From Desulfobacterales bacterium (GTDB taxonomy: Bacteria > Desulfobacterota > Desulfobacteria > Desulfobacterales > UBA5616), in assembly GCA_046483495.1 (NCBI GenBank), contig JAWODC010000001.1, forward strand, positions 96,001-160,000: DNA of 64,000 nucleotides. The letters run 5' to 3'. Below are positions 15,134 through 42,257 of the stretch, piece after piece (the first letter of the stretch is position 1; the number at the start of each line of letters is the position of its first letter). The notes under the pieces were generated by a model that was not told where the DNA came from, made no database searches, and saw only the letters and a program-made list of their open reading frames with translations. Position numbers and translations under genes: made by a program.

Positions 15134-15154
15134 AAAACCTCCGAAATACAATGG

Positions 15155-20423: not shown

Positions 20424-20473
20424 GGCACCCTTCGCCCTGCTGTTCAACGGCGATGAATCCAGGGGATACCATC

Positions 20474-21901: not shown

Positions 21902-21966
21902 ACCGGGTGGATGGTACCGGTTTATTCCGATGATTATACGACAGATTATGCTGCACTCCACCTATT

Positions 21967-23478: not shown

Positions 23479-24537
23479 TCACCGGTTTTCTGCGCACGCT
23501 TGTGTAGTTAGCCATTGAATCTGGTGTTTGATGTTCCGGATATCCGTTTCACCGGGGGCAAATGGAAAATTGCGGATGTTCGGGCCCGGCCTGGAATTGG
23601 CATAGGGCCTGTTGCAAGCGACACTGCCGTCTTTTCCGCTGCAGCCGCTGGTTCTAAAAGGTTCGCCGGATTCGATCATCCGATTCAGCCGGTTACCGTT
23701 TATGCCGAAATCACATATTCGGCCTTCCGGGTCGAACGCGAATCCATCCACGCGGGATGCCGCTTCATCGATTATAAACCTGGCCAATTGAATCCGCCGG
23801 TATTGGTCCATGGATGGCGGGCGGTGATCTGCCATGGCCGAGTCGGCTTCCGGGTAGAATGAAAACAGGTGCGTCCTGCCGCCCATATCACGGGAGCGCT
23901 GTATGGCCCTGCACATTTCCTGTTCCGTCTCCCCCATTCCTACGATAAAATGGGGACCGGCATTGCCGTCGCCGACCAGCGATACGGCCTGTGCAAGACA
24001 ATCCCAGTATCGCTCCCACCGATGGGGTCCGCCGACTCCACTGCCCCGGTAGCGATCGAAAAGATCTTTTGTGGCGAGGTCCACGGCTACTCCGATCTTG
24101 TCGGCGCCGGCCGCCCTGAACGCTTTTACGTCTGATTCGCTGAGGACCGTCGGTGAAACAAGAATGCTGATGGGAATCTTCGTGCGGCTTAATTGCTTGC
24201 AGATGTCGGTGGTATGGGCCACGGCACGCTTCCGGGTCACCATGGAAATGCAGATCCGCTTTACCTGGTTCTTGCGGGCTTCGATCCGGGAGATAATCTC
24301 ATCGAGCGGATAGTTCGGCCAGTCGACACGGATGAAGCTTTTGTCGACATATTCTCCCGACCGGCTTTTGGATAACCCGCAGTAGGCGCATTTTGCGATG
24401 CATCCGTCTTCGTATGTCAACAAGAGATTAATGCAGTATAGTTTTGCATTGCGATAAAACATGCCGGATTTGAATCCAAGTGTCATGGCGGCCGCCAAAC
24501 TCATCCGTGCATATTCAGGACTTTGCTTTTTCGGCAT
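23479..24537 (-). CDS. lipS2: Radical SAM lipoyl synthase subunit LipS2
   Basis: CIAKCAYC SAM motif plus C-terminal TSGC..ACNRP matching the LipS2 TxGC..C(N/D)RP signature; adjacent to lipS1 and a lipoate ligase. Confidence 0.82.
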   Translation of the reverse strand: MPKKQSPEYARMSLAAAMTLGFKSGMFYRNAKLYCINLLLTYEDGCIAKCAYCGLSKSRSGEYVDKSFIRVDWPNYPLDEIISRIEARKNQVKRICISMVTRKRAVAHTTDICKQLSRTKIPISILVSPTVLSESDVKAFRAAGADKIGVAVDLATKDLFDRYRGSGVGGPHRWERYWDCLAQAVSLVGDGNAGPHFIVGMGETEQEMCRAIQRSRDMGGRTHLFSFYPEADSAMADHRPPSMDQYRRIQLARFIIDEAASRVDGFAFDPEGRICDFGINGNRLNRMIESGEPFRTSGCSGKDGSVACNRPYANSRPGPNIRNFPFAPGETDIRNIKHQIQWLTTQACAENR

Positions 24538-24555
24538 CGATTTTCCTTTGCAGTA

Positions 24556-25473: not shown

Positions 25474-25544
25474 CGATGATTCGTTTGGACCGATGGATCA
25501 GTCATGCAGACGCAATGTCAAGCGTTTGTTATAAGGATTTCGCC

Positions 25545-26630
25545 TCATGCAGGGCATATTCCACCCAATGCTTCGAAAATCGAATCCAGGGGTTGAATAA
25601 ATTCGCTGCACGTCATGCCGGGTATATGGATCAACCCGTTCTCAAAGTATTTTTCGATCGTACCCCGAATACGATGATGATCCAGGGGGGCCCCTTTGAT
25701 TTCGGCCATGAGGTCGTAAACCCCCCGTGAGGGAAATGACAACATGTCCCCGGTAATCAGGAAATCCTTTACCTGAACATTATTCCTGTGGATCGTCAGT
25801 GTAAATCGTACCATCCCTGAATCGAATTTTTTGAGGGCGCTTAGCGTTTTCGGCGCTCGAGATGTTGACTTTATCAGGTGAATCCATGCTTCCGATTGAA
25901 AAAACGGCAGCCTTGTACCCATCATCGCTTCTTCTTTTTCCGTCAGCGGCATGGATTCGAGATGGATATCGAATGTTTTTTCAAATGCCTTGACAAGTTC
26001 TGCTTTCACAAGGGAAATCGGGGGAATGCTACCAAGCTCGGCGGTCATGCTGGTAACCCGTTGTCGAATGGAGTCGATTTCCCGTACACTGAGTTTTTCG
26101 ACGGGAATATTCAGGCAGCCGAGCATTTCACTGATATCGCCGTCCATTAAAATCGTTCCATGGAACAGCAGTGCACCATACAGCTCGGTACCGCCGGTGC
26201 CGGATATCTTCCGCCCGTTGACTTCAATGTCGTTCCTGGGCCTGAATTCAGCCCTTACCCCAAGCTTGGCCAATGCCCGAATGACAGGTTCGCACAGGCG
26301 TTGAAAAAGCTTTTCCGTTATGAAATCGACATTCAGGAAGGTCTTGTCGCAGATGATTTCCCATCCAAGCTGGCGTTCATCGAGAAAAACAGCCCCCCCG
26401 CCGGTGATGCGTCGATTGACCTGAATGCCCATTTTCCGGCAATAATCCGAACGGATTTCTTCTTCCGCAGCCTGATGATGCCCCAACAGTACAGCGGGAG
26501 GAGAGAACTGTAAAAATCGGACGGTATTCAGGGTTTTGCCGTCGCCTTTAAGCGCCAGTAAAACATCGTCCAATGCCATGTGCTCAGCCGCTGTCATGGG
26601 CGGCAGGTCGAGAAGTCGGAACGTGTCCAT
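25545..26630 (-). CDS. Lipoate/octanoate:protein ligase with fused LplB-like C-terminal domain (sLpl(AB)-type)
   Basis: HMALD, RRITGGGAV, RPRNDIEVNGRKISGTG, HGT; C-terminal ITGD domain. Confidence 0.88.
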   Translation of the reverse strand: MDTFRLLDLPPMTAAEHMALDDVLLALKGDGKTLNTVRFLQFSPPAVLLGHHQAAEEEIRSDYCRKMGIQVNRRITGGGAVFLDERQLGWEIICDKTFLNVDFITEKLFQRLCEPVIRALAKLGVRAEFRPRNDIEVNGRKISGTGGTELYGALLFHGTILMDGDISEMLGCLNIPVEKLSVREIDSIRQRVTSMTAELGSIPPISLVKAELVKAFEKTFDIHLESMPLTEKEEAMMGTRLPFFQSEAWIHLIKSTSRAPKTLSALKKFDSGMVRFTLTIHRNNVQVKDFLITGDMLSFPSRGVYDLMAEIKGAPLDHHRIRGTIEKYFENGLIHIPGMTCSEFIQPLDSIFEALGGICPA

Positions 26631-26674
26631 ATTAATAATTGCCGGTTTGCGTAATCTTAACGATGATGAAACAC

Positions 26675-26703
26675 ACCATATTATGAAGTTTAAAAACTGT
26701 CAA
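26675..26703 (-). promoter_or_regulatory. Sigma70-like promoter for the ligase-lipS1-lipS2-acdA unit
   Basis: TTGACA(26703-26698)-17 nt-TATGGT(26680-26675). Confidence 0.6.
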
Positions 26704-26753
26704 ATAGAGGCTTTTTGTTTGAGCCTGGTGCCTCACGCCCGGCCGGCTGTTGA

Positions 26754-28682
26754 TCAGGGCAATGCCGCGGACAAAACGGATGCGACGGTTCTCGACAACC
26801 GGGACGGGTTCTCCACTTTGCCGCCTTCACCGATAACCGCCATATCATACAGCAGCCCGGCATAATCTTTCAAAACCGGATCTTTTCGATTTGCGTCATA
26901 AAGGGCCCTGATTTTTTCCATCACCGGATGTTTGACGTTCAGTTCAAGAATCCGCTTGGACTCCGGCGGCTTCTGGCCGGTGGCCGATAACACTTTTTCC
27001 ATATAGGCGCTCAAATCGTATTGATCACCTGAAAGGCAGGACAAGGAATCCGTAAGGCGTGCGGAAGGACGAACGTCTTTAACCTTTTCTTCCAACTGGG
27101 ATTTGACGAAGGCAAAGAACGGTTTGTACGCTTCTGCATCCATTTCCTCTTTCTCATCGAGGTCCAGTTCTCCCCTTTCCGCACTTTTGAATTTCTTTTT
27201 CTCATACTCGGCCAACGATTCCACAACCCATTCATCCACCGGATCCGTCATCAGAAGGATCTCGTATCCTTTATCCTTCAGCCTTTCGAGCAGCGGGCTG
27301 TTGTTGAGCAGGGAAATGTTTTCTCCGGTAAGATAGAATATTTCCTTCTGGTCCGGCTTCATCCGGGAGACATACTCCGAAAGCGATACCCATTTTCCTT
27401 CAGAGGCCGTGGTCTTGTAGCGCAACAGATCGGCGATTCTCGTCTTGTTTTCCGGGTCCGTATGAATGCCGATTTTGAGAATGGGTCCGAATTCTTCGAA
27501 GAACGCGGTAAATTTTTCTTCCTCGAAATCTTTAATGAGATCGAGTACTTTTTTTACCAGGTTTCGGCGTATATTTCGAATAAGACGGTCCTGTTGGAGA
27601 ATTTCACGGCTGACATTGAGGTTTAAATCCGGAGCGTCCACCACGCCTTTTACGAATCCCAGATACTCCGGAATCAGCTCCCGGCAGTCCTCCATGACAA
27701 AAATACGCTTGCAATAGAGATGGACGCCGTGCCGCTTTTCGGTGCGAAACAGGTCAAACGGCGCTTTAGCGGGTATGTAAAGCAGAGCGTTGTATTCGGT
27801 GGTTCCTTCGAACTTCATGTGCAGCCTGGCGAGCGGCGGATTCCAGTCATGGCTGATGTGGGAATAGAACTCGTTGTACTCGTCGTCCGTAACCTCATGC
27901 TTATCCCGCGCCCAGATCGCTTTCATGGAGTTCAGGGTTTCTTCACGGATAACGGTGCGGGTGGTCTTTCCGATGGCTTTTCCATCCTTATCCTTGATTT
28001 GCTCCTCTTCCGGAATGGGCTCTTCTTTCTCGACGTCCATGACAATAGGATAGGTGACGAAATCCGAATGCTTCTTGATAATCCGCCGAATCACCCACTC
28101 ATCGGTAAAATCGATTCCGTCTTTTTCGGGTTTTTTCAGTTTCAGAATAATGGTCGTTCCCCTTCCGTCCTTTTCGACGGGTTCAATGGAAAAAGTACCG
28201 TCCCCCGAAGACTCCCACTTCACCGCATTGTCCGATCCTGCAGCCCTTGTAATCAGTGTCACCTTTTCCGAAACGATGAACGCACTATAAAACCCTACGC
28301 CGAACTGACCGATCAATTCGGGCGTTACGATGGTTTCGTGGTCCAGCCGCTGCAGCGCTTCAGCGAACTCGGCGGTTCCGCTTTTGGCGATCGTGCCGAT
28401 GTTTTCCAGGACCTCATCGTAGGTCATTCCGATGCCGTTGTCGGAAATTTCCAGAATCCGACCGATGCCGTCCCTTTTGATTTTGATTTTCAGTTCGGTG
28501 TCCTCTTTCATCACTTCCGGATCGGTCTGTGATTTGAACCGGAGACGATCCAGTGCATCGGAAGCGTTGGATATCAACTCTCTCAAAAAGATTTCCTGGT
28601 TCGAATAAAGAGAGTTGATAATCAGGTGCAGCAGCTGCTGCACTTCTGTCTTGAACTCATGGGTTTCTTTACGCGGCGTCAT
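26754..28682 (-). CDS. htpG: Chaperone HtpG (Hsp90)
   Basis: [56 protein letters not shown]. Confidence 0.98.
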
Positions 28683-29078: not shown

Positions 29079-30263
29079 CTACGGCATCGATTCCTTTATC
29101 AATTCCGTAATGTCCATCACCTTGAGATCGATTTTGTTGCGTCGCACATAGGTGGTCATCGTCCGAACGCATTGCTGGCAGGATGTCACCACAGCTTCGG
29201 CACCGGTTTTTAAAATTTCTTCGATCTTTTTTCCGGCGATTTCAGCCGCCAATTCGGCATCGATCATTTCCAGGTTCCCGCCGCCGCCGCAGCATCGGCA
29301 GTTCTCCCTGTTATGTTCCATTTCCACCAATTTGACCCCGGGAATGCGACGGATCACCTCCCTGGGTGCATCGAATTCGCGGGCCCCCCTGCCCAAATCA
29401 CAGGGGTCGTGGTATGTGACGGTGATGTCGTTCTTTTTCAGCGGAATCCGGTTTTCTTCGATCAGGTTGTGCAAAAACCGGGTGACATGATAGAGGTTGA
29501 AGTCATTCGGGTAGTATTCGCGCCACATCTGATAGCAGGAGGGGCAGGCGAACACGACGGTTTCAGCCTTTTTGCGCCGAATCGCCGCAACATTGTGTTC
29601 GATGATCCGACTCACTTTGTCTTTCAATCCGGCTCCCAATAGCGGGAAGCCGCAACACCACTCGTCTTCTCCAAGAAGCGTAAAGTCCACACCCGCCGCT
29701 GTAAAAATTTCTGCAAGCGCCATGGGAATTTTCTGGACCATGGGAAAATATGCCGCTACACAGCCGGTAAAGTAGACCACCTCGGCCTCATCCTGAATGT
29801 ATCCATTCTCCGGCGGGTTTTTGGCATCCTCCACCCATTCGGCCCGTTCTTCGTTGTCCTCGTCGAACACGTTATGGCTTTCGAACAGATTGTTCCGTAT
29901 CCGGTCGATTTGACCCGGATAAGCCTTTGAATGGACAAGATCCTGTCGAAGATTCAGCCAGATGTCTTTCAGATGAATGCCGACCGGACAGACCTCCTGG
30001 CAGCTACCGCACAGCGTACATCGGAAAACCGTTTCGCTGTATGGCTTCATTGCATCCGCATCCGGAGTGCTTTTGCCCGCCAGCCGCCGCATCAGTCCGT
30101 AACGTTTCCGATTGATTTTCTTCAATTCATCCAGGCGATAAATGCCGGACAGACGACCGTCCTTTGTCGCCAGCACCGCCGGGCAGACTTCGGCACACAA
30201 GCGACAGTTGGTGCAGGCGCTCATGGCCAGCAAGTCCTTTTTGCTGTATGATGAATTTTTCAT
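29079..30263 (-). CDS. HdrD-like Fe-S oxidoreductase (two ferredoxin-type [4Fe-4S] motifs plus two CCG domains)
   Basis: CTNCRLCAEVCP and CTLCGSCQEVCP; FTGC..WCCG..CPSC and HDPC..RCCG..CQQC; start MKNSS at 30263. Confidence 0.9.
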   Translation of the reverse strand: MKNSSYSKKDLLAMSACTNCRLCAEVCPAVLATKDGRLSGIYRLDELKKINRKRYGLMRRLAGKSTPDADAMKPYSETVFRCTLCGSCQEVCPVGIHLKDIWLNLRQDLVHSKAYPGQIDRIRNNLFESHNVFDEDNEERAEWVEDAKNPPENGYIQDEAEVVYFTGCVAAYFPMVQKIPMALAEIFTAAGVDFTLLGEDEWCCGFPLLGAGLKDKVSRIIEHNVAAIRRKKAETVVFACPSCYQMWREYYPNDFNLYHVTRFLHNLIEENRIPLKKNDITVTYHDPCDLGRGAREFDAPREVIRRIPGVKLVEMEHNRENCRCCGGGGNLEMIDAELAAEIAGKKIEEILKTGAEAVVTSCQQCVRTMTTYVRRNKIDLKVMDITELIKESMP

Positions 30264-30264
30264 T

Positions 30265-30687
30265 TTAATCCTGTTGATACTTCTCGATATCGGCAAGCAT
30301 CCAATGCTCGATATCTGCAGGCGTATGAATCAGATCCTGCACTTCGGACATGTCGTCGGGTTTTATTTTGTACATCCAGCCCTCACCATAGCAGTCCCGA
30401 TTAATCAGTCCCGGATCGGTTTCCAGCTTTTCATTGGATGCCATAAGCTCCCCGTTTACCGGGGCATACACCTTGCCCAACCATTTTCCCGACTCCACCT
30501 GGGCGAACTTTTTTCCTTTTTTCAGGGACTTTCCTTCAGGGGGCAGTTTCACAAATACAATGTCACCGGCCATCTGCTGGGCGAAATCATCCATTCCCAT
30601 GATCAACAGATCCCCTTCGACCTTTACCCAGTAATGATTCTCCTCGTAATAGAGGTCTTCCGGCATCCGATACCCCTGTATTTCCAT
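30265..30687 (-). CDS. GcvH/LbpA-like lipoyl carrier protein
   Basis: LYY..HYWVK, GMDDFAQ..GDIVFV, VESGKW (lipoyl Lys), APVNG, INRDCYGEGW. Confidence 0.9.
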   Translation of the reverse strand: MEIQGYRMPEDLYYEENHYWVKVEGDLLIMGMDDFAQQMAGDIVFVKLPPEGKSLKKGKKFAQVESGKWLGKVYAPVNGELMASNEKLETDPGLINRDCYGEGWMYKIKPDDMSEVQDLIHTPADIEHWMLADIEKYQQD

Positions 30688-30691
30688 CGTT

Positions 30692-32446
30692 TCACTCCTT
30701 TTCTTTTTTAAAGCCGTTTATTATCATCAGTACCGGCGCCGTAATCATGTGCAGCATCCGGCCAAACGGCAGATATGCGATAAAGAGTCCGGTGAACACG
30801 GCATGAACGTACCACATATATCCGTAAATGTCAGCAATTCCCGTCATTCCGGTAAACAGCAGGGCCGTTGCATAGCCCAGAAACGACCATTCGGCGCCGG
30901 CTGGAAATCCGGTCATAGCGATTCGCATCCCCTCGATGATGAATCCGACGATTACTATGGCCGAGAGGATCGAAATGCCGATCCAGTCCTGTCCGGGCAT
31001 ATGTTTGAACCCGGCGGCCGGTCGGCGGCTTTTCGAGACAGCGGCCGAAAAGGCACCGAAAATCACCATAAGGCCGGTAATATCGAACAAAAAAGCGCCG
31101 AACGGATGGTTTTTATCCAGCATGGCCCGCGTTAAATCGGTATTCGGCAGGGTTTTCGACATCACCAGTGCCGCAATTCCCCAGCTGAATCGAATGATAA
31201 AGGGGTAGAAAATCAGCGCGTGAACAGCCCACCGTCCGGGTGATTTGTAAAATAGTTTTCGCTGGCAGAGCACATCCCAGAATAATGCGCCGCAACCGGA
31301 AGCGATCCTGCGGAAAAAAATCGCGGGTATCGCCTTCCGGGTCCTTTCACCGGATTTTCGAGTGCTGTCTTCTTCGTGCCGATGGTACGTCAATCCAGCC
31401 GAAAACACGTAAAAAAAGGAAATCAAACCAAGGGCAAAAACAGCCAGCGAGGCAAGCGTCACCCAATCACCGATCGAAAGTGTTGCGGTATGACAGGGCA
31501 TGCAGATAATGCTTTTGGCGGGCAGCACCATGGCCGAAGCCCCCAGTTCATTGCCCGTATAATGGCATCGCCTGCATGAACCCTCATCAGCGAGCCTCAT
31601 CTCGTGGATGCTGCTTCCAACTCCGGAAGTGTAAGCCTTACGGTAGTGTACGATTCCCGAAACCGGGGCTTTAACGGGCATGACACCGGATAAATGGCAT
31701 GCCCGGCACGATACCCGGACATGGGCGTCATGGAGGGTCTTTTCATCATGATAATCGTGGCACCGCCGGCAATCGGTCAACGGCTGTTCGCCATGACCGT
31801 ATTCAGCGGATTCCGGGTGGCATGCCATACAGGAAAGGTCGGCATGGGCCGTGTCCGTGTACCTCTCTGCATCGATCATCGGAAAGGCCGGATCGAATCG
31901 ATCCCGGTTTGTTTCTGCATGACAGTAAAAACAGAATGCGGCGATGCTTTCGTTGCGTCCCGTCCCGGCGGGCGGCAGTTCATGACAAACCACACAGGAT
32001 TGGTCGGAAGAATAGGGAGAAGGCAGCCGGCTTTCGCTTTCATGGCAGACACCGCATTGCTTGTCCACCGGCGCCTCGGGATCGAATTCGTCCGGTATGC
32101 CGAAACCCAATTGGTAATGCGGATCGTGGCAGGCCAGGCAGTTTTCAATGTCCTGCTCACGTTGAACGGTCTTTCCACCGTGTTCACCGAGCGCAATGAA
32201 ATCCGCCACCGCATCATGACAGGATGCACAGCTTTCCGGGCTGAAAAGATCCGCCGGGGATTTCGTGACATTTGCCGGATCCGGATGGGACCCCGGATCG
32301 ATATCGACATGGCAATCCGTACATGCCGTTTGGCCGTGCACAGAGACATGATAACGCTGCAAATCCACCAGCCAGGATCCGGAGGCATCCGGGCAGAAAA
32401 ATATCGGCAATACGACAAACCAGCTGAGAACAACGCAAATTTTCAT
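30692..32446 (-). CDS. Multiheme cytochrome c (11 CxxCH) fused to a NarI/HdrE/DsrM-like cytochrome b membrane domain
   Basis: Signal peptide; CTDCH, CASCH, CLACH, CGVCH, CVVCH, CFYCH, CMACH, CRRCH, CRACH, CRRCH, CMPCH; then TM helices with RWAVHALIF, GFIIEGMR and H-AVFTGLFIAYLPFGRML-H. Confidence 0.88.
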   Translation of the reverse strand: MKICVVLSWFVVLPIFFCPDASGSWLVDLQRYHVSVHGQTACTDCHVDIDPGSHPDPANVTKSPADLFSPESCASCHDAVADFIALGEHGGKTVQREQDIENCLACHDPHYQLGFGIPDEFDPEAPVDKQCGVCHESESRLPSPYSSDQSCVVCHELPPAGTGRNESIAAFCFYCHAETNRDRFDPAFPMIDAERYTDTAHADLSCMACHPESAEYGHGEQPLTDCRRCHDYHDEKTLHDAHVRVSCRACHLSGVMPVKAPVSGIVHYRKAYTSGVGSSIHEMRLADEGSCRRCHYTGNELGASAMVLPAKSIICMPCHTATLSIGDWVTLASLAVFALGLISFFYVFSAGLTYHRHEEDSTRKSGERTRKAIPAIFFRRIASGCGALFWDVLCQRKLFYKSPGRWAVHALIFYPFIIRFSWGIAALVMSKTLPNTDLTRAMLDKNHPFGAFLFDITGLMVIFGAFSAAVSKSRRPAAGFKHMPGQDWIGISILSAIVIVGFIIEGMRIAMTGFPAGAEWSFLGYATALLFTGMTGIADIYGYMWYVHAVFTGLFIAYLPFGRMLHMITAPVLMIINGFKKEKE

Positions 32447-33288
32447 TTGGACAAAAGCTCTTCCGCTCGATATGAACTCCTCACAAATGGACCGGCAAAC
32501 ACGTGTTCAAATCCCGTTTTACGCGCAACTGACGCCAGCATATCGAATTCTTCCGGTGGAATATACCGCCTGACCGGTGCATGATCCCTTGACGGCGCCA
32601 GGTACTGACCCATTGTCAAAATCCGGCAGCCCGATGCGACCAGATCTTGAAAAACGTTCTCCAGTTCCGATGCGGTTTCTCCCAATCCGAGCATCAGTCC
32701 CGATTTCGTCCTTAGTCCGGCTTCGGCCGCCTGGGAAAGAACCGTCAGTGACCTGGCATAATCCGCCTGTGGCCTGATCTCCCGGTAAAGGCGAGGGACC
32801 GTTTCCACGTTGTGGTTGAAGACATCCGGCCATACACGGCATATGGCTTCCACCGACGATTGTTCACCTTTAAAATCCGGAATGAGCAACTCTACCGTCG
32901 ATTCGGGCGACCGTTTTCTGACCGCTTCGACGGTCGACACAAAATGGCCTGCACCGCCGTCCGGCAGGTCATCACGGGTAACCGAAGTGATGACCACATG
33001 GGAAAGGCCCGCTGCTTTTACGGCCTGCGCCACATGCATCGGCTCCTTATCATCCGGCATCAGCGGGGCCGTGGTATGCGGCACCGCACAAAACCGGCAG
33101 TTCCGCGTACAGCGGTCGCCCAGTATCATGAATGTGGCCGTTCCACGATGAAAGCATTCACCGATATTCGGGCATTGTGCGCTCTGGCATACGGTGGCTA
33201 ATTTCAGTCGGCTGAGCATGCTCTCCATGCGCGAAAGCGACGCGGCTGATGGGGCCGGCCGCTTCAGCCAAACAGGATGGCCCTTCAT
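32443..33288 (-). CDS. lipA: Lipoyl synthase
   Basis: VCQSAQCPNIGEC, CTRNCRFC, VTRDDL, NHNVETV, KSGLMLGLGE, RSSY; start MKGHP at 33288. Confidence 0.96.
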   Translation of the reverse strand: MKGHPVWLKRPAPSAASLSRMESMLSRLKLATVCQSAQCPNIGECFHRGTATFMILGDRCTRNCRFCAVPHTTAPLMPDDKEPMHVAQAVKAAGLSHVVITSVTRDDLPDGGAGHFVSTVEAVRKRSPESTVELLIPDFKGEQSSVEAICRVWPDVFNHNVETVPRLYREIRPQADYARSLTVLSQAAEAGLRTKSGLMLGLGETASELENVFQDLVASGCRILTMGQYLAPSRDHAPVRRYIPPEEFDMLASVARKTGFEHVFAGPFVRSSYRAEELLSK

Positions 33289-33319
33289 GTCACCTTCCCT
33301 CGCGCCACGGTAAACGGAC

Positions 33320-34696
33320 TCATTTTCGACGCCTCGGCAGATACAGTGCCCAGCCCTGAGCGTCCTGGCCCGCCATTGGGATCGTCTCCGAAAATGTGGG
33401 ATGAACGGCCATGCAGTAGGCAAGGTCTTCGACCGTCGCCTCCATCTGCATGGCCAGCGAGGCTCCCCAGATCAGTTCTACGGCATTGCTGCCCACAATG
33501 TGAACACCCAGGATTTCGCCGTATTCGGCATCGGAAATCACCTTCACCATCCCTTCCGTCTCGCCGTAAGCCATGGCAACGCCGTTAACGGAAACCGGGC
33601 ATTCTCCGATTTCGACTTCCAGGTCCTGATCATCGGCCTCTTCTTCCGTAATGCCGACGGAGGCGGCTTCCGGAATCGACCACAATCCGCGCGGCGCCAG
33701 GGAAGCATTGTATGTCCGGGACCCGCCCATGGCGTTTTCAGCAGCGGCGACCCCCATGCAGGTCGCCGCGTAACTGAGCTGCCATGAACCGGTGATATCG
33801 CCGATGGCATATATATGATCCGAACTCGTCTTCAGCGTATCATCCACCGCGATAAAACCGTTGTCATTCAATTCGACACCGGCCCTGTCCAGACCGATAT
33901 CCACATTGGGCTTTCGGGATGAGACGAGCACCTTTTCCACTTCCACCGTTTTCGCTTCGGACCCGGCCAGTTCGGCAGTGTATCCGGCCTTGCCCTTTTT
34001 TACGGCGCCGAGCGTGTATCGCGGCAAAAATTCGATGCCCTGCTCCCGAATCGCCATCGTCACACGTTGACTGACGGTGCCGTCCTCAGCCGGAAGGGCT
34101 CTGGGAGATTCGGATATCATGGTTACCTTGGCGCCGAAAGCATTTAAGATCAAAGCCATTTCCACTTCGATGGGTCCGGCGCCGATAACGAGAACCGACG
34201 ACGGTACGGCCGTCATTTCCAGGACGTGGTCCGTAGTCATTGCCGCAGCATCGTCAAGCCCGGGAATGTCCGGCATATGAATGGCGGTCCCGGTTGCAAT
34301 GATAATGGATTTTGTATTCAAAACCGTTTCACCGGCCTGGACCTCACCGGGACCTTTCAATCGGCCGTATTCGGCTATGACATCAATTTTGTTGTTCTTG
34401 CATAATCCTTTCATGCCCATTTGAATATCTTCGGGCACGCCCTTTCGGCGCTTGACGATCGTTTCTAAATCCACACCGTTGACAGCCGCCTGTATGCCGA
34501 AATCACCGGCATGCTCGATGGTGCGCTTCATCCGCGCCGCCCTGTTCCATATCTTGGCCGGTATGCATCCCCGGTTTACGCATGTTCCCCCCATTTGTGC
34601 CGGTTCGAGTATGGCCGTTTTTCCGCCCAACTGCGAAGCCCGTATTCCCGCGGCATATCCTCCCGGTCCGCCGCCGATCACAATCACATCATACAT
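33320..34696 (-). CDS. lpdA: Dihydrolipoyl dehydrogenase (E3)
   Basis: GGGPGGY, GGTCVNRGCIP redox disulfide, AIGD, HPTFSE. Confidence 0.95.
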   Translation of the reverse strand: MYDVIVIGGGPGGYAAGIRASQLGGKTAILEPAQMGGTCVNRGCIPAKIWNRAARMKRTIEHAGDFGIQAAVNGVDLETIVKRRKGVPEDIQMGMKGLCKNNKIDVIAEYGRLKGPGEVQAGETVLNTKSIIIATGTAIHMPDIPGLDDAAAMTTDHVLEMTAVPSSVLVIGAGPIEVEMALILNAFGAKVTMISESPRALPAEDGTVSQRVTMAIREQGIEFLPRYTLGAVKKGKAGYTAELAGSEAKTVEVEKVLVSSRKPNVDIGLDRAGVELNDNGFIAVDDTLKTSSDHIYAIGDITGSWQLSYAATCMGVAAAENAMGGSRTYNASLAPRGLWSIPEAASVGITEEEADDQDLEVEIGECPVSVNGVAMAYGETEGMVKVISDAEYGEILGVHIVGSNAVELIWGASLAMQMEATVEDLAYCMAVHPTFSETIPMAGQDAQGWALYLPRRRK

Positions 34697-34855: not shown

Positions 34856-35878
34856 TTACATTCTCACCACAACTTTCACCGAACTGTCAACGCTGCACTG
34901 AATATCGAATGCTTCTTTTGCCTGTTCAATGGGAAATTCATGGCTTACAATTTTCATCCGGTCCACCTTCTTGTCCCGCATCAGTTCAAGCGCCCTTACC
35001 GCGTCGTCCGGGACGAACCCGTAGGAGCCGAATACCTTTACGTGTTTTGCCACCATCGGCATCATCTCCAGTGTTACCGGGGCTTCAAACGCGCCATGAA
35101 CCACGACGGTGCCGTATTCACGGGCAACCAGCAGCGCCTGTTGAAGCACCGGCGGTTCGGGCCTCTCCTGGATATACCCGACGCAGTCATATACAATATC
35201 CACCGCAGGGGATGTCATTGCGCCGCCGAGAATCGTAACCGGCACCTCGCCGGTAAGATCGACGGCCCGCTGATACACATCCTCTTTGGCGGCATTGACA
35301 ACCTCATCCACCCCCAGGTCCCCGGCCATCGCCAGCCGTTTGTCCGAAACATCCACCATGATTATCTTGCTCAATGCCGTTTCCATCACTGCGAGGGTCT
35401 GAACGATCCCCAGACCGATAATCCCGGCCCCGAATATCATGACGTTTTGTCCGTCGGCCGGGCTTCCCAACCATGCGGCATGAAGCGAATTGCCGAGGGG
35501 TTCCGTAGTCGCCGCTTCGACCCAGTTCACGGCATCGGGGATTTTATAGACGTTCAACCCTAAAAAAGCGGGGCTGACGGGCACATATTCCGCCATTCCG
35601 CCGAATGTCAGGGCGGTGACCCGATCCCCGACATCGATCCCGGAAACATCCTTCCCGACGCTCACCACTTCACCGGAAAATTCATGGCCGGGTATCATTC
35701 CACCGTCCGAAGGCCGGCAAAGCGCTTCGGCAAAAACGCCCAATCGATACATGTGCAAATCCGATCCGCAAATGCCGCATGCATGGACCTTGACCAGGAT
35801 GTCCGCATCGCCGATTTCCGGCATGGCCACCTCTTCGGTGGTGATTTTCTTCGGTTCATGATAGATGACTGCCTTCAT
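34856..35878 (-). CDS. Zn-dependent medium-chain alcohol dehydrogenase (2,3-butanediol/sorbitol DH-like; structural-Zn loop absent)
   Basis: CGICGSDLH, PGHEFSG, TTEPL, GAGIIG. Confidence 0.88.
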   Translation of the reverse strand: MKAVIYHEPKKITTEEVAMPEIGDADILVKVHACGICGSDLHMYRLGVFAEALCRPSDGGMIPGHEFSGEVVSVGKDVSGIDVGDRVTALTFGGMAEYVPVSPAFLGLNVYKIPDAVNWVEAATTEPLGNSLHAAWLGSPADGQNVMIFGAGIIGLGIVQTLAVMETALSKIIMVDVSDKRLAMAGDLGVDEVVNAAKEDVYQRAVDLTGEVPVTILGGAMTSPAVDIVYDCVGYIQERPEPPVLQQALLVAREYGTVVVHGAFEAPVTLEMMPMVAKHVKVFGSYGFVPDDAVRALELMRDKKVDRMKIVSHEFPIEQAKEAFDIQCSVDSSVKVVVRM

Positions 35879-35916: not shown

Positions 35917-36600
35917 TTACAGGCGGCGCAAATCGTGCGTTTCGGCTTCCGGCATGAGGTGTGCCTGCACCTCGAAAACGGATGAAAATTCCCGGATGAC
36001 AACACCGGCCACCTCATCCATATTCAGGTGCCGGTTCAGCTTTTTTTTCATGGATGTTACGCCCTTGTCTGAAATGCCGCATGGGTGGATCAGATCGAAG
36101 TAGGACAAATCCGTATTCACGTTCAAAGCGAATCCATGTTTGGTCACCCATTTCTTCACTTTGACGCCGATCGCCGCGATTTTTTCATTTTCGATCCAGA
36201 CGCCCACGTGTTCATCATCACGGCGCCCTTCAAGCGTGTAAGCACCAAGTGACCGAATCACCACCTGTTCAAGATTTCGAATATACCGATGAATGTCATT
36301 TCCCCATCGGTTCAGATGCAAAATGGGATATCCCACGATCTGCCCCGGACCGTGAAGCGTAATGCTGCCGCCCCGATCCGTCGGAAAGACGGCAACGCCT
36401 TTTTGCTCCAGTACGGCCGTCGAAACAAGAATGTTTTGCCGGTCCGTACCCTTGGCCAGCGTCAGCGTCGGGGGATGTTCCAGAAGCAGCAGTGTATCGG
36501 GGAAATCCCCCTTTATCCGCATGGATTGGAGTTTATTCTGGAGTGAAAATGCAGCATCGTAAGCCATAACTCCGAGCCTGTAGACGTCCAGCATTTTCAT
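35917..36600 (-). CDS. lipB: Lipoyl(octanoyl) transferase
   Basis: LLEHPP, DRGGSITLHGPGQIVGYP, KIAAIG, HGFALN, PCG. Confidence 0.96.
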   Translation of the reverse strand: MKMLDVYRLGVMAYDAAFSLQNKLQSMRIKGDFPDTLLLLEHPPTLTLAKGTDRQNILVSTAVLEQKGVAVFPTDRGGSITLHGPGQIVGYPILHLNRWGNDIHRYIRNLEQVVIRSLGAYTLEGRRDDEHVGVWIENEKIAAIGVKVKKWVTKHGFALNVNTDLSYFDLIHPCGISDKGVTSMKKKLNRHLNMDEVAGVVIREFSSVFEVQAHLMPEAETHDLRRL

Positions 36601-36622: not shown

Positions 36623-37903
36623 CTACACCAGCAGGATGGGGTTCTGAAGGATTTGTCCAAACCGCCCCAGGAACATGCCGGCCGGCACACCGTCGAGCAC
36701 GCGGTGGTCAAACGTAAATGAAACCGGCATCATGGGCCGAATGACAATTTCGCCGTCTTTTACCACCGGACGGTCCATTATTCCGCCCGGCTGCAGAATC
36801 GCCGATTGGGGTTGATTGATAATCGGCGTTCCGAACCCCCATCCACCGCCCATGCCGCCCATGCTGGTAATGGTGAACGTGCCGCCGAACACATCATCCG
36901 GCATGAGGTTGCCATCCCTGGCTTTCTGAACCGTCGCTTTCAGCTCCTGACTGATTTCGGACAGGGACTTCTTGTCGGCATTCCTGATCACCGGTACGAT
37001 CAAACCGCCGCCCAGCACATCCGCTCCCTGGAGCGCGACCGCTACACCGATATTGATGTCTTCCCAGACAACGACTTCGTTGTCGATGACGCTGGCATTC
37101 ACCATGGGCAGCTCTTTCAAGACCTTGGCAGCCGCCTTGACGTAAATGTCGGTATAAGAAATCCTCACCCCGAGGTTTTCTTCATTGGCGATCAATTCTT
37201 CCCTGAATTTTTTTAGTCCGGTCACCTCGAGTTCGGACATCGCGGTCAGCTGGGCCGCCACCGTGAGACTCTGCACCATATGGTCGGCGATGGCCTTTCT
37301 CATTCCCCTGAGCTTCATTTTTTCTTTTACTCTGATGCCGCCGAGGGTGTCGGCAGCTTCCGCCACTGCTGAAGGGGCGGGTTCCGGTGCCGCGGCGGCC
37401 GGTTGAGACGGAGCGGCTGCCTGTTCGGCGATCGCCTTTTCCACGTCCTGCCGGGTTATCCTCCCGCCGGGTCCGGTGCCTTCAACCGTCGAAAGATCGA
37501 CGCCTTTTTCTTCAGCCATTTTCCTGGCAACCGGAGATGCCTTTACTTTTCCGCCCTTTGCCGCGGGTTTTTTCGCCGCTGCTTCGTCGGCAGGCGCCGG
37601 CGCAGCCGCTTGCGGCGCGGCTGCGGCGGGCGCTCCCGACGCCTTCTGCAGTTCGGAAAGCTCTTCCGGTGACTGGGCGAGTTTGCCGACTACTGCACCG
37701 ACCTTTTCCGTTTGATCGACGGGAACCATGATGTGCAGGTATCCTGCATCCGGCGATTCCACTTCCCATGATGTCTTGTCGGTTTCAATCACAAGAATGA
37801 CATCGCCTTCATTGACCTGATCGCCTTCATTGAATTTCCATTCCGTCAGTGTCGCTTCCTTCATACTCATGCCTAGTTTCGGAATATGAATTTCTACAGC
37901 CAT
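36623..37903 (-). CDS. Dihydrolipoamide acyltransferase E2 (one lipoyl domain)
   Basis: PKLGMSM..IETDKT lipoyl domain, Ala/Pro linkers, [23 protein letters not shown]. Confidence 0.95.
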
Positions 37904-38093: not shown

Positions 38094-39056
38094 CTACCCG
38101 GTGACGGCCTTTACCGCCGCAGCGATCTGGTCCTGCTGCGGAAGCACAAACTGCTCCATGGCGCCGGGCGGAATGGGGTAGTTTTTGGCAGCCACACGCT
38201 GAACCGGCGCATCCAGGTAGTCAAATGCCTTCTCCACGATCTGCATGGCGATTTCTCCTGCGGCACCGCACCTCGAGGTGTCTTCATCGACAACAATCGC
38301 CCGTCCTGTTTTTATGACGGACGCGATGATCGTGTCGATATCCAGCGGCTCAAGAGAGCGTGGATCGATGACTTCGATGCTGACATCGTCCTTCATCTTT
38401 TCGGCGACCGAGAGGGCGAAATGCACTTGCATGCCTGTTGCCACCATGGTGACATCCGTGCCTTCCCGCTTGATATCGGCTTTGCCAAGCGGGACGACAT
38501 ATTCTTCTTCCGGAATTTCACCGGAAGTCCCCAACAGGGCCTTGTGATACAGGTATACCACGGCATTATTGTCCCGAATGGCGGATTTCATCAGTCCCTT
38601 GGCATCGTAAGGCGTGGACGGCACCGCGATTTTAATCCCGGGCGTATGCATGTAATAAGAAACCGGCGCCTGTGAATGCTCGGCACCGAGCCCGAGGTAT
38701 CCACCCATAGCCGCCATGAAAACCACCGGTATTTTCTGGGTTCCTTCATGCATGAACCGCCATTTTGCCGCCTTGCAAAGAATTTCGTCAAAGGCGATAT
38801 ACATAAAATCGGCGAACATAAAATCGGCCACCGGCCGATATCCGGTCATGGCCGAACCTACCGCAGCGCCGGCAATGGCTGTTTCCGAGATGGGCGTATC
38901 CATGATCCGGTCCGCCCCGAACCGCTGCACCAGTCCGGCGGTGGTCCCGAACGCTCCCTGTTGAATACTTTCACCCAAGATAAATACCTTCTCATCACGC
39001 TCCAGTTCTTCGGCCAAAGCTTCGTTGACGGCCTGAACATATGTAATCTGTTTCAT
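38094..39056 (-). CDS. TPP-dependent dehydrogenase E1 beta subunit (AcoB/PdhB-like), copy 1
   Basis: DTPISE, MFADF, GAEHSQ, PSTPYDAKGL, VIDPRSLEPLD, FDYLDAP. Confidence 0.93.
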   Translation of the reverse strand: MKQITYVQAVNEALAEELERDEKVFILGESIQQGAFGTTAGLVQRFGADRIMDTPISETAIAGAAVGSAMTGYRPVADFMFADFMYIAFDEILCKAAKWRFMHEGTQKIPVVFMAAMGGYLGLGAEHSQAPVSYYMHTPGIKIAVPSTPYDAKGLMKSAIRDNNAVVYLYHKALLGTSGEIPEEEYVVPLGKADIKREGTDVTMVATGMQVHFALSVAEKMKDDVSIEVIDPRSLEPLDIDTIIASVIKTGRAIVVDEDTSRCGAAGEIAMQIVEKAFDYLDAPVQRVAAKNYPIPPGAMEQFVLPQQDQIAAAVKAVTG

Positions 39057-39070
39057 CGTTATTCCCCCTG

Positions 39071-40045
39071 TTATTCGGCATAGAGAAAATCATCCAGTAT
39101 CGATGCATCTTTTGGAAGCATTTGCGGACATTGGGACTGGAATGCATCCAGCCGGGCGACTTCGTCGTCGGCTTCCCGGTCGATCTCGTCAATCGCTTCT
39201 TCCGTCATGATCCCCTGTTTTATCAGCTTTTCTTTGAAGATGATGATCGGATCTCGTTTGCGCCAATCGGATTTATCTTCATCGGTTCTGGGTTTTGTGT
39301 GATCGACGTCCGGAACGCCCTCGGCATGGGCCCGCATGCGATAGGTTTTGCATTCGATCAAAGACGGGCCGTCCCCCGCTCTGGCACGGTCCACCGCAGC
39401 TTCGACGGCTTCATGAACGGCAAGCACATCCTGGCCGTCGACCACAATACTCGGCATGCTGTAGGCGGCGGCCAGGTCCGCAATATCCTCGCGGGCGAAT
39501 GCATCGCGGATGGGCACAAACTGGCCGAACTGGTTGTTTTCGCAAATCCACACGATGGGGAGTTTCCAAACTGCCGCCAGATTCATGGACTCGTGAAGAG
39601 TCCCCCTTCCGGAGGCACCATCACCGAAAAAGCTGAGCACGGCCTGGCCTTTCTTGTTTTTCTGCGCCGTCAACCCCCATCCCAGGGAGAGAACGAAACC
39701 GCCGCCGATGGTTCCGCTGATTCCGAAAATGCCGCGTTCTTCAGCTGTCGGCCCCTCGATTTCTCCTGGATCCTTATCGAAGTGCCGGCACACCCATCCT
39801 TTCGGCGAAATGCCCCTGGCGAGATAAAAACTGATCGCATGCCCCCGATGATGGGGGTAAAGGTAGTCATCCTCTCTCATATTGAAGGTGCAGGCACCTA
39901 CGCCGACAGCCTCTTCGCCGACGCCCGCGTGATAAAATCCGGCCATTCGGCCGGAGTTGAGCGCCTCGACGAGGAGGGCATCCAATTTACGGGCACGGAC
40001 CATCAGGGAATAAAATGTAACCAATTGCTCTTTTTCCAATTTCAT
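39071..40045 (-). CDS. TPP-dependent dehydrogenase E1 alpha subunit (AcoA/PdhA-like), copy 1
   Basis: GEEA, HHRGH, GDG..ENN TPP motif, VDGQD, TYRMRAH, RDPI. Confidence 0.92.
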   Translation of the reverse strand: MKLEKEQLVTFYSLMVRARKLDALLVEALNSGRMAGFYHAGVGEEAVGVGACTFNMREDDYLYPHHRGHAISFYLARGISPKGWVCRHFDKDPGEIEGPTAEERGIFGISGTIGGGFVLSLGWGLTAQKNKKGQAVLSFFGDGASGRGTLHESMNLAAVWKLPIVWICENNQFGQFVPIRDAFAREDIADLAAAYSMPSIVVDGQDVLAVHEAVEAAVDRARAGDGPSLIECKTYRMRAHAEGVPDVDHTKPRTDEDKSDWRKRDPIIIFKEKLIKQGIMTEEAIDEIDREADDEVARLDAFQSQCPQMLPKDASILDDFLYAE

Positions 40046-40113
40046 GCTTCCCTCCTTTTTCGTGGGGTCTATCCAGGAGTGATCGATGCTTAAGCTTACA
40101 GCAGGAACAGGCC

Positions 40114-41076
40114 CTACTTCATAACACTCTCGATGGCTTCTTGAATATCTTTGGGTTGAGGCAGAACATAATCTTCGAGGAAACCGGCCGCAATCGGCAT
40201 ATCGGCTGCGGCTACCCGCACAATGGGTGCGTCCAGGTAGTCAAACGCATTTTCGAGGATCTGAGCGCTGATTTCCGAAGTAACGCCGCAACGCTTGTTG
40301 TCCTCGTCGACGATCACGCACCTGCCGGTTTTCTTGACCGATTCGATTATGGTGTCGATATCGAGAGGCTCCAGGGTTCTGGGATCCACCACTTCCACAC
40401 TGATCGTGTCTTTGATTTTCTCGGCCGTTTCAAGGGCTAAGTGGACCATCCTGGAAATCGCCACCACGGTGACGTCGGTTCCTTCACGTTTGATATCCGC
40501 CTGCCCGAATGGAATCAGATATTCCTCCTCCGGTATTTCGCCGGGCAACCCGAGCAATCCCTTGTTGTAGAAAAAAATCACGGGATTGTTGTCGCGAATG
40601 GCGGTTTTCAGAAGCCCCTTGGCATCATACGGCGTGGACGGAACGGCGAGCTTAAGTCCCGGTGTATGCATGACCAGGGCTTCCGGGCACATGGAGTGTT
40701 CGGCACCGATTTTCATGCCCCCGCCCATGGCCGCCATGATCACTACCGGGACCTTTACTTTTCCGCCGTGCATGAAATGCCATTTCGCGGCTTTGAGCAG
40801 TATTTCATCTCCTGCGATATACATAAAATCGGCGAACATCATATCCGCTACCGGTCTATATCCCGCCATTGCGGACCCGATTGCGGCTCCGGCGACCGCC
40901 GTTTCAGCCAGCGGCGTATCCATGACGCGCTCCGCGCCGAACTCCTGTACAAGTCCGCTGGTGGTTCCAAATGTCCCCTGCTGAACATTTTCCCCGATGA
41001 TGAACACCGTTTCATCCCGACGCATTTCTTCACGCAGCGCCTCGTTTATCGCCATAAGGTATATTGTCTGTTTCAT
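40114..41076 (-). CDS. TPP-dependent dehydrogenase E1 beta subunit, copy 2
   Basis: DTPLAE, MFADF, GAEHSM, PSTPYDAKGL, FDYLDAP; start MKQTI at 41076. Confidence 0.93.
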   Translation of the reverse strand: MKQTIYLMAINEALREEMRRDETVFIIGENVQQGTFGTTSGLVQEFGAERVMDTPLAETAVAGAAIGSAMAGYRPVADMMFADFMYIAGDEILLKAAKWHFMHGGKVKVPVVIMAAMGGGMKIGAEHSMCPEALVMHTPGLKLAVPSTPYDAKGLLKTAIRDNNPVIFFYNKGLLGLPGEIPEEEYLIPFGQADIKREGTDVTVVAISRMVHLALETAEKIKDTISVEVVDPRTLEPLDIDTIIESVKKTGRCVIVDEDNKRCGVTSEISAQILENAFDYLDAPIVRVAAADMPIAAGFLEDYVLPQPKDIQEAIESVMK

Positions 41077-41279
41077 ATGTCGGAGACCTCCTAAGTTGGC
41101 GCCCACCCGAAAAACGGACGGCTCATCCCGTTGTTCGGCCGGACATAAGTTGTTTTACCCGGCAACCGTTGGGGGCATCGATCCCTGCAGGTGAAAATTC
41201 AATTCGCCTTGAATCGGATCGATCTGCTTCCGGTTAATCTCGTTTCGTGGACGTATGACTTTCATCGAATGGCACGCGC

Positions 41280-42257
41280 CTATTCGGCATATACCAGTTT
41301 TTTGAGAATATCGGCGTCCGGAATGGGGCTGTCAATGCAGAATTTCTCCGTCAGGTCCGCCTCTTCGGCCGCTTCTTTATCGATTTTATTCACCATCTCC
41401 TTCTTCAGCACGCCCTGTTTCAGCAGTTTAGCCTTGAACGACTCGATGGGGTCCCGTTTTTTCAATTCAGCGATCTCCTCCTCGGAACGAGCTTCGGTAT
41501 GAGATACATCCGGGCTTCCTTCGGAATGGGAGCGGTAGCGCGCGGTTTTTGCCTCGATCAAGGATGGGCCGTCTCCTTTTCTGGCCCGCTCCACGGCCGC
41601 TTCAACGGCTTCATAAACGGCGATCACATCCATGCCGTCCACGACGATTCCGGGCATATTGTATCCGCCCGCCAAATCGGCGATATCCTCCTTGGGGAAG
41701 GTGTCCTTGATGGGCGTAAACTGGGCCATGCCGTTGTTGTCGCACAACCAAACGATGGGCAGTTTCCAGACGGCGGCCAGATTGAACGCCTCATGAAGGG
41801 TGCCTCGATTGGACCCGCCGTCACCAAAGCAGGCAAGCACCACCTGCTGTTTTCCAGCCTTTTTGGCGGCCAATCCCCACCCCAGAGACATGGGAAATTG
41901 TGAACCGATCGTACCCGCGGCGCCTAGAGCGCCGTATTCCGGCTCAGCAAAATGGAATCCTGAAATTCCAAAACAGGTACCGGTTGCCTTTCCCCAGTGC
42001 TCGGCCAAAAAACCTTTCCCATCCAGACCCTTGCCGATGAGATAGCCGATGCCGTGCCCCCGATGATGGCCCCAGAGGTAATCATCTTTTCGAAGCGGTG
42101 CCGTAGCCCCCACGGCCAAGGCTTCCGATCCCTGCCCGCTGTGGTAAAACGAGAGAACCTTCCCCTCCTGAAGACCCCTGATGGTCAGCTCATCGAGTTT
42201 GCGGGTCCGAACCATGTTCCGATATAACCGGATCAAATCGTCCTTTCCAAGTTTCAT
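41280..42257 (-). CDS. TPP-dependent dehydrogenase E1 alpha subunit, copy 2
   Basis: HHRGH, GDG..DNN, VDGMD, RYRSHSE, RDPI; start MKLGK at 42257 with RBS AGGAGG. Confidence 0.92.
   Translation of the reverse strand: MKLGKDDLIRLYRNMVRTRKLDELTIRGLQEGKVLSFYHSGQGSEALAVGATAPLRKDDYLWGHHRGHGIGYLIGKGLDGKGFLAEHWGKATGTCFGISGFHFAEPEYGALGAAGTIGSQFPMSLGWGLAAKKAGKQQVVLACFGDGGSNRGTLHEAFNLAAVWKLPIVWLCDNNGMAQFTPIKDTFPKEDIADLAGGYNMPGIVVDGMDVIAVYEAVEAAVERARKGDGPSLIEAKTARYRSHSEGSPDVSHTEARSEEEIAELKKRDPIESFKAKLLKQGVLKKEMVNKIDKEAAEEADLTEKFCIDSPIPDADILKKLVYAE

Follow-up and report, generated by a model that had tools for sequence, protein, structure and literature searches.

A lipoyl carrier gene between the halves of a candidate HdrDE-like membrane oxidoreductase in a Desulfobacterales bacterium

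What does a small lipoyl protein do when its gene lies between the two halves of an HdrDE-like pair? The question is raised by five genes in a stretch of 64,000 nucleotides (nt) from a Desulfobacterales bacterium (assembly GCA_046483495.1, contig JAWODC010000001.1, positions 96,001 to 160,000), called the window here. Coordinates are positions in the window, and the whole module is on the minus strand. The conserved core of the module consists of a multiheme-NarI fusion, a GcvH/LbpA-like carrier and an HdrD-like protein; a lipoate ligase often accompanies it. We hold with moderate confidence that this core is an HdrDE-like membrane oxidoreductase, that its dithiol/disulfide substrate would be the lipoyl group of the dedicated LbpA-like protein and that it would be fed by E1/E2 in this host. 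New with respect to the initial annotation of this DNA is the state of the Lpd variant of the operon, referred to as Lpd*: it keeps the FAD, disulfide and His-Glu motifs but has a broken NAD-binding fingerprint. The five genes are:

33320..34696, minus strand: Lpd-like flavoprotein (Lpd*), 458 amino acids (aa); TIGR01350 score 411, cut-off 408.8
32443..33288, minus strand: LipA lipoyl synthase, 281 aa; TIGR00510 over cut-off, both Cys motifs intact
30692..32446, minus strand: fusion of an 11-heme c cytochrome with a NarI/HdrE/EMO-type membrane domain, 584 aa; 11 CxxCH motifs, His pattern
30265..30687, minus strand: GcvH/LbpA-like lipoyl carrier, 140 aa; K68 in ESGKW, conserved C99 and putative basic patch
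29079..30263, minus strand: HdrD-like protein, 394 aa; two cubane motifs, two complete CCG domains, S242, HDPCDLGR signature

The tight packing described in the initial annotation was confirmed from the coordinates of the open reading frames (ORFs): the genes are separated by 31 nt, an ATGA overlap, 4 nt and 1 nt.

Conservation of the gene module

A carrier scan yielded 60 loci: 51 with a close full-length or near-full-length carrier, one with a partial carrier (L056, kept outside the counts) and 8 with canonical GcvH as controls. At least 600 nt of downstream sequence was present in 47 of the 51 loci, which were thus evaluable for HdrD. An HdrD-like gene was found at most 400 nt downstream of the carrier in 45 of these 47 loci but in none of the eight canonical-GcvH loci, so the pairing is not due to chance. 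The HdrD-like gene was not next downstream in L021 and L050, and in L021 and L143 the carrier gene stands beside E1 or Lpd* genes even where HdrD is not adjacent. The membrane domain was found upstream of the carrier in 42 of the 51 loci. The other recurring genes were ligase (28 loci), Lpd (18), E1 (18), E2 (13), GlcF (11), LipA (10) and LipS (8). As many loci are truncated, the upstream counts are minima. In the relatives, the ligase usually comes straight after HdrD. The named loci are mostly from Thermodesulfobacteriota.

Thus, the gene order first seen in the window is kept elsewhere for the core, while the full set of five genes occurs in only 6 of the 51 loci. Lpd and LipA were not upheld as part of the conserved unit: Lpd and GlcF have no locus in common, and the 11 loci with the GlcF block are other loci. 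The input side comes as either of two blocks that can replace each other, E1/E2/Lpd or GlcD/GlcF, and Lpd and LipA are part of one of them.

The linkage was also visible at the level of genomes. We sampled 400 genomes from the phylum, 44 of which had a carrier match at E≤1e-40. The core HdrD lineage (E≤1e-180) was present in 23 of the 400, and 22 of these 23 held a close carrier. Together with the adjacency, this bears out the proposed tie between the carrier and the HdrDE-like pair. Searches of plasmids did not find the module.

More distant carriers, with ESGKW or ETGKW, occurred in three further settings: next to HdrD and a NarI-type protein that has no c hemes, flanked by HdrA/C/B-like genes on one side and a GlcD-CCG fusion on the other, and next to lactate racemase and a GlcD-CCG fusion. 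The second setting (L188:5306-11951, L189, L191, L108, L099 and L110) has the order HdrA-HdrC-HdrB-like genes, carrier, GlcD-CCG fusion; this soluble version is possibly a bifurcating Hdr with a lipoyl-protein disulfide. In the third (L097, L102 and L190), E1/E2/Lpd* are encoded elsewhere in the same genomes, and lactate formation could be an electron sink there. L180:5807-10832 encodes a 643-aa HdrD fusion, followed by a divergent carrier with an EAGKY site and by LipS1-Lpl-LipS2.

Carrier, HdrD-like protein and membrane domain

The carrier residue K68 aligned to the lipoyl lysine of solved H proteins and was present in 42 of 42 aligned rows. Among the 120 best homologues, ESGKW was found in all and the Cys after it in 113; C99 was kept in 41 of the 42 rows. 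Terminal Cys residues were nearly absent, with 1/120 in the first 15 and 0/120 in the last 15 residues. K53, K59, K60 and K72 are conserved, the isoelectric point is 4.3–5.4, and the LipS genes of the window score under the cut-offs of their hidden Markov models.

By name, the carrier is a GcvH: it passed the TIGR00527 and NF002270 cut-offs, databases label it so and the ESM Atlas gave GcvH-family clusters only. That it is an ordinary glycine-cleavage H protein in an incidental neighbourhood is nevertheless very improbable. No GcvP or GcvT match was found in the 96.7% complete host genome. GcvP was present in 1/51 and GcvT in 2/51 carrier loci versus 7/8 and 8/8 control loci, and 8 of 23 close-carrier genomes had no GcvP match. 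A quick tree, with no LbpA included, split the carriers from canonical GcvH with a support of 100. As judged from sequence and gene content, the carrier is not a glycine-cleavage H protein, since GcvP/T are missing from the host and the carriers group in a clade of their own, with the ESGKW site of the LbpA type; the reservation that it merely serves GcvP/GcvT can be set aside. By its motifs it is LbpA-like, not an LbpA. Two tandem GcvH-related proteins without an ESxK lipoyl site were also seen in the host (C20:14245-16257).

The HdrD-like protein has both complete CCG motifs, as had been noted, plus two CxxCxxCxxxC motifs. All ten non-cubane Cys were present in 41 of 42 aligned rows, the remaining row being truncated. 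Position 242 was Ser or Thr in 42/42 rows, and HDPCDLGR was invariant. Both complete CCG motifs were found in 25/25 proteins picked from carrier/HdrD loci versus 2/14 other CCG proteins of the host. Hdr is described with ten Cys and an open cavity; in EMO, one distal Cys is missing and a His occupies the substrate site (10.64898/2026.08.18.745454, PMC13083937). S242 aligned to the His of the CPHC motif of EtfD (sequence alignment to 9OJN). The protein is thus of the Hdr type, as claimed initially, and the Hdr-type ten-Cys set without the blocking His favours thiol chemistry at HdrD, though it is no proof. In a quick CCG tree, 20 rows of the HdrD lineage grouped together with a support of 92; the same tree does not place the GlcF-type and fused CCG partners firmly with or outside this lineage.

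For the fusion protein, the 11 CxxCH motifs, an N-terminal hydrophobic segment and the membrane domain were confirmed. The count is 11 hemes in 26 of 30 aligned full-length rows and 9–10 in the others. The likeness to NarI proved real but weak: the profile of the fusion matched Escherichia coli NarI (probability 80.5, E 1.3e-5) and two homologues matched PF02665 at ~5e-5, while the window protein itself had no Pfam NarI match at 1e-4. H409, H548 and H566 were invariant in 30 rows of the membrane domain. H548 and H566 aligned to NarI H187 and H205, and H409 falls near H56 with an uncertain register; Arg419 takes the position of a further His in NarI. The same three-His pattern is reported for EMO and modelled for HdrE (10.64898/2026.08.18.745454). 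We also considered heme 11 as a substitute for the distal heme b via H548. This idea was dropped, as a single distal His is the EMO/HdrE pattern.

The three-His pattern also fits an EMO-like wiring, in which the HdrD clusters are reduced directly by a flavin (the FAD of Lpd* or GlcD) and the role of the carrier is limited to serving Lpd* or passing lipoate on to E2. Moreover, EtfD (9OJN) is the closest solved relative of the HdrD profile (E 2.2e-50), and flavoproteins of the same fold can drop NADPH use and change partner, as reported for FFTR (PMC12796991). However, both the distal Cys loss and the blocking His of EMO/EtfD are absent from this HdrD lineage. The operon has its own LipB, which needs no relay in E. 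coli according to PMC10332631. The carrier is also found in the 11 GlcF loci without a visible Lpd and between HdrBC and GlcD-CCG fusions. Hence, we regard this wiring as unlikely.

A reversed or sulfur role would keep the carrier-HdrD chemistry: low-potential electrons from the periplasm would reduce the carrier, which is then used reductively; or the carrier would hold sulfane sulfur, like LbpA in sHdr; or DsrC would be the substrate of HdrD. In favour of this, methanogen HdrDE works as a reductase (10.64898/2026.08.18.745454); the best NCBIfam match of HdrD, under the cut-off, is TfrB, a subunit of a thiol-driven reductase; the host has dsrA, dsrC and class III cytochromes; and C99 is nearly invariant. 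Decarboxylation by E1/E2 is normally one-way, which speaks against the reverse direction. The LbpA Cys pair is absent from the carrier, and no sHdr, TusA or DsrE family was found among the 53 window ORFs scanned (short ORFs are incompletely covered); shdr genes were likewise missing among the recurring gene clusters. DsrK has one non-cubane site (10.64898/2026.08.25.746951) versus two in the HdrD-like protein. Overall, such a role is improbable.

The operon Lpd and the proposed route

We compared Lpd* with E. coli Lpd and glutathione reductase, using its 119 closest homologues and, as controls, 19 of 20 Lpds of the phylum (L153 was left out). Three features of the NAD site are changed in Lpd*: E177 replaces a Gly (E. 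coli G187), S195 replaces a Glu (E205) and one residue is deleted before R261 (R273). The third Gly was present in 0/119 homologues (Glu in 113, Asp in 3, Ala in 2 and Thr in 1), an acid at the E205 position in 0/119 and the deletion in 119/119. The second Gly was also lost in 18/119 and the first in some loci, and the Gly before the Arg, in the region of the GxxP motif, was kept in 8/119. By contrast, every NAD feature was intact in 19/19 controls. An Arg pair of the NADP type was not present either: the equivalent of glutathione reductase residue 198 was Arg in 1/119, and that of residue 204 was Pro in 102/119. C39, C44, D300, H432 and E437 were kept in 119/119. Lpd* in the window also keeps the FAD motifs, and its C-terminus is WALYLP. 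The mean identity by domain does not single out the NAD domain relative to the controls (36.8 vs 38.7%); only the motif positions do.

E205 is among the published coenzyme-specificity residues, and NAD binding is described as defined by GxGxxG/A plus an acidic strand end (PMC5817062). GxxP is a family motif, and where these motifs are lost, a loss of dinucleotide binding has been linked to it (PMC1924876). The E3 of this operon, Lpd*, therefore seems to have lost its NAD site. NADH had been proposed as the entry point of a lipoate-mediated NADH:quinone or NADH:cytochrome route. This entry is unlikely because the NAD fingerprint is broken in all 119 homologues and no NADP fingerprint takes its place, and the label of the route fails for the same reason. 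FFTR is a precedent for lost NADPH use and a partner switch in a related flavoenzyme (PMC12796991).

The variant is not confined to this host. Among the best 30 Lpd loci in the sample, 24 were variants, 23 of them outside the host genome. The carrier was found at E≤1e-40 in 21 of the 23 Lpd* genomes, with its site motif seen for all but three of those 21, and in one more by profile; this gives 22/23 versus 1/19 control genomes. A quick tree showed two variant groups (support 99 and 96), with their union unresolved. In four genomes, the third Gly of Lpd is kept and the first two are lost.

In the window, the five genes form the end of a longer run on the same strand, and the lipoate ligase and two LipS-like genes follow 2.4 kb downstream of HdrD, past htpG:

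41280..42257, minus strand: E1 alpha, first copy (acetoin/2-oxoacid dehydrogenase type); PF00676, scores under the pyruvate dehydrogenase (PDH) cut-offs
40114..41076, minus strand: E1 beta, first copy; PF02779/PF02780, NF006667 over cut-off
39071..40045, minus strand: E1 alpha, second copy; thiamine pyrophosphate motif intact, 53% identity to the first copy
38094..39056, minus strand: E1 beta, second copy; 67% identity to the first copy
36623..37903, minus strand: E2 acyltransferase; one lipoyl domain, E3-binding domain, catalytic DHRxxDG intact
35917..36600, minus strand: LipB octanoyltransferase; NF010925 over cut-off
34856..35878, minus strand: Zn-dependent alcohol dehydrogenase (Zn-ADH); non-core, on the operon strand in L004 only among the 51 loci
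25545..26630, minus strand: lipoate-protein ligase (Lpl), 361 aa; PF21948
24556..25473, minus strand: LipS1-like radical SAM protein; NF053742 score 215.5, under the cut-off of 230
23479..24537, minus strand: LipS2-like radical SAM protein; NF053743 score 224.8, under the cut-off of 270

On balance, we think it probable that electrons pass from a NAD-independent acetoin/2-oxoacid dehydrogenase by thiol exchange to the carrier, HdrD, heme b and finally periplasmic hemes or quinone. E1/E2, whose motifs are intact, would oxidise the substrate and leave dihydrolipoyl-E2, as is known for the family. Lpd*, docked on E2, would take the electrons on its C39-C44 disulfide, pass none to NAD and hand them to the lipoyl carrier by thiol-disulfide exchange. 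A role of Lpd* on E2 fits the data, as E1 or E2 was present in 16 of the 18 loci that hold Lpd*. The dihydrolipoyl carrier would then be oxidised at the two non-cubane clusters of HdrD, whose ligand set is present and whose substrate is suggested by the gene order. From there, electrons may flow via the cubanes to heme b and then on to quinone, the periplasmic c hemes or both; the architecture is observed, and acceptor and direction are our inference from it. LipB/LipA may lipoylate E2, and Lpl with LipS1/S2 probably the carrier. Relatives have a 2-hydroxyacid dehydrogenase of the GlcD/GlcF type in place of this input, or a soluble HdrABC in place of the output. Acetoin as the substrate is suggested by AcoX-like genes, which are neighbours in 10 related loci, and by related neighbours only.

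The energetics were computed from a lipoamide potential of -0.29 V (PMC6067878) and background values for the partner potentials. From lipoamide, the transfer was about -42 kJ/mol to menaquinone, about -8 to a -250 mV cytochrome and about +6 to NAD. Lactate to lipoyl came to about +19 kJ/mol; therefore, versions of the GlcD type may act as sinks or depend on coupling.

Several observations weigh against this route or its parts. E179, which binds the nicotinamide carboxamide (PMC1924876), was kept in 119/119 Lpd* homologues, and Asp or Glu stood one position after the canonical acid in 95/119. For this reason, altered NAD or NMN binding, or an unusual nicotinamide use by Lpd*, is possible. In a second Lpd* clade, most rows retain the acid. 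No carrier adjoins the cytochrome-HdrD pairs of L172 and L183 or the HdrD-lineage genes of L174, L176, L178 and L179; one genome (G142, 85% complete) has Lpd* and HdrD, and the carrier was not found in it. The ten Cys also occur in a GlcF-like paralogue unlinked to the carrier. EMO-type clusters are described as only relaying electrons (10.64898/2026.08.18.745454, PMC13083937), and the role of the CCG-type domain in GlcF as unclear (10.64898/2026.08.18.745454). Of the menaquinone synthesis genes, MenB was over the cut-off, and MenD, MqnC and MqnA/D were under it. Finally, the genome and locus counts are not independent because the genomes are kin.

The first of these points would also serve a lipoate-mediated link between NADH and cytochrome or quinone, running in either direction, with an Lpd whose rearranged site continues to use NAD(H) or with a canonical Lpd in trans. 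TIGR01350 is just over its cut-off, K48 and R261 are kept along with E179, a gene for an NAD-type Zn-ADH adjoins, and contig C78 of the host carries a separate canonical PDH-type operon with an intact canonical Lpd. A comparable link from a lipoyl carrier to NAD was proposed for LarG in Pelobacter carbinolicus (PMC3543383) and for LbpA (PMC6067878). We consider this link rather unlikely, however: all three NAD-site features are changed in all 119 homologues, with further loss of the second Gly in part of them; E1 or E2 accompany Lpd* in nearly all of its loci; and no Lpd was seen in 33 of the 51 loci, many of which are truncated.

A broader reading than the proposed route is more tentative: a lipoylated protein could be a general dithiol 'coenzyme' of anaerobic bacteria, as coenzymes M and B (CoM/CoB) are in methanogens, joining two-non-cubane enzymes and a NAD-free E3. 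The enzymes meant are the membrane HdrDE-cytochrome, soluble HdrABC and the GlcD-CCG dehydrogenases. If true, an acetoin/2-oxoacid dehydrogenase complex would be connected straight to periplasmic cytochromes, independently of NAD.

Known systems and neighbouring genes

The module combines known parts in a way that is real, conserved and, it appears, undescribed so far; by its sequences it resembles HdrDE with an LbpA-like substrate and would be a member of neither. Like HdrDE of Methanosarcina, it has a protein with two cubane and two non-cubane clusters next to a three-His heme b domain of the NarI type. In contrast to HdrDE, it is bacterial (the host bears dsrA), its membrane part is fused to 9–11 c hemes, CoM/CoB are not implicated, and it encodes a lipoyl protein between the subunits and its ligase after them. 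The sHdr-LbpA system likewise has a GcvH-like carrier beside Hdr-like genes and Lpl with LipS1/S2, to which the LipS1-like and LipS2-like genes of the window would correspond (PMC6067878, PMC10332631, 10.64898/2026.10.01.755906), and the carrier has basic residues where GcvH is acidic, as LbpA does (10.64898/2026.10.01.755906). LbpA has a Cys near the N- and the C-terminus (PMC6067878), a pair that the carrier lacks; furthermore, membrane-bound HdrD replaces the soluble sHdr subunits, and the module is linked to carbon dehydrogenases in dsrA-bearing anaerobes. The ESGKW site and the long C-terminus are common to the carrier and a two-Cys protein of an Acidithiobacillus ferrooxidans plasmid, called LbpA-type here by the published two-Cys hallmark (PMC6067878). 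The gene of the latter (L199:8995-12698) lies among hemerythrin, globin and thioredoxin genes, near an Hdr-related iron-sulfur protein gene.

EMO/EtfD shares the NarI-type three-His domain and the cubane and CCG domains (PMC13083937, 10.64898/2026.08.18.745454). As described there, EMO is a fused chain without the distal Cys and with the blocking His, unlike the module with its ten Cys, Ser/Thr and separate subunits; no ETF family was found among the gene clusters recurring in the carrier loci. In DsrMK(JOP)-DsrC and Tmc/Hmc, a protein-borne sulfur substrate is likewise brought to a non-cubane site of a membrane complex (10.64898/2026.08.25.746951). In that account DsrK has a single non-cubane cluster, unlike HdrD, which scored far under the cut-offs of DsrK (103.8 vs 400), TmcB (96.2 vs 735) and HmcF (64.9 vs 750). 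AcoABCL/PDH complexes have the same E1 alpha, E1 beta, E2, E3-like and LipA/LipB parts, and the AcoX-like neighbours recall the acoX context in PMC3543383; they differ from the module, in which the E3 is without a NAD fingerprint and is tied to a free carrier as well as to a membrane module. In the LarG hypothesis for P. carbinolicus, a lipoyl carrier and Lpd are proposed to link a membrane complex to the cytoplasm (PMC3543383). There, the complex is Act, not HdrDE, NAD is the end point and, as far as that paper goes, it is a hypothesis only.

In agreement with the initial statement that no characterised example is known, a literature search, which included few subscription journals and did not extend to supplements, gave no description of the module; these proteins could be included in the genome tables of PMC10332631 or in the supplementary CCG phylogeny that goes with the EMO preprint. 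The nearest literature was the sHdr-LbpA and lipoate papers and the P. carbinolicus genome paper, none of which, in the parts searched, describes it. The lipoate uses listed in these sources are 2-oxoacid and acetoin dehydrogenases, glycine cleavage, sHdr-LbpA and peroxide defence (PMC10332631, PMC6067878). If true, the module extends this list to respiration in anaerobes and to a dehydrogenase complex that works around NAD. One group among the many HdrD-like orphans of sulfate reducers gains a concrete candidate substrate, and the proposed reaction of a lipoyl protein with Hdr-type clusters gains a simpler test case. The organisms with the conserved module, bacteria of the sulfate-reducer type, appear to use a small lipoyl protein as an electron shuttle. 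The database labels GcvH and Lpd on the module genes would mislead metabolic models.

Scans for promoters and terminators gave counts close to chance (13 vs 10.3±3.4 and 22 vs 16.6±4.7) and are uninformative on the operon limits. Contigs from RNA libraries of three studies lay on all five genes, mostly at ≥99% identity, and two span ADH-lpd; their depth is low and DNA carry-over is possible, so they were not counted as evidence of co-transcription. The host genome also has matches to cytochrome c maturation genes and 48 matches to the MenB/crotonase family.

Some minor observations concern the neighbourhood. The tandem E1 alpha/beta pairs (38094-42257) have one common E2 and perhaps serve two substrates. 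A further E1 pair without an E2 match nearby lies at C86:32676-35252 of the host, and an AcoX-like gene, away from the operon, at C68:27263-28279. In the stretch 23479-28682 of the window, htpG lies between HdrD and Lpl-LipS1-LipS2. The window Lpl lacks the DUF116 extension of its ~530-aa relatives, and no LipT-like gene adjoins it; a flavoprotein of the geranylgeranyl-reductase family at 47070-48227 has a partial likeness (35% over 167 aa) to the LipT-like gene of the relatives. In L178:5571-11353 and L179, a NarI-type gene and an HdrD-lineage gene are followed by QueG, near a Pup-ligase-like gene. Window 10384-23472 encodes an acyl-CoA dehydrogenase, EtfAB, two BcrAD/BadFG ATPases and two HGD-D subunits (a BcrABCD or HgdABC-like set), as well as a DUF362 protein and two convergent acyl-CoA ligase-like genes.

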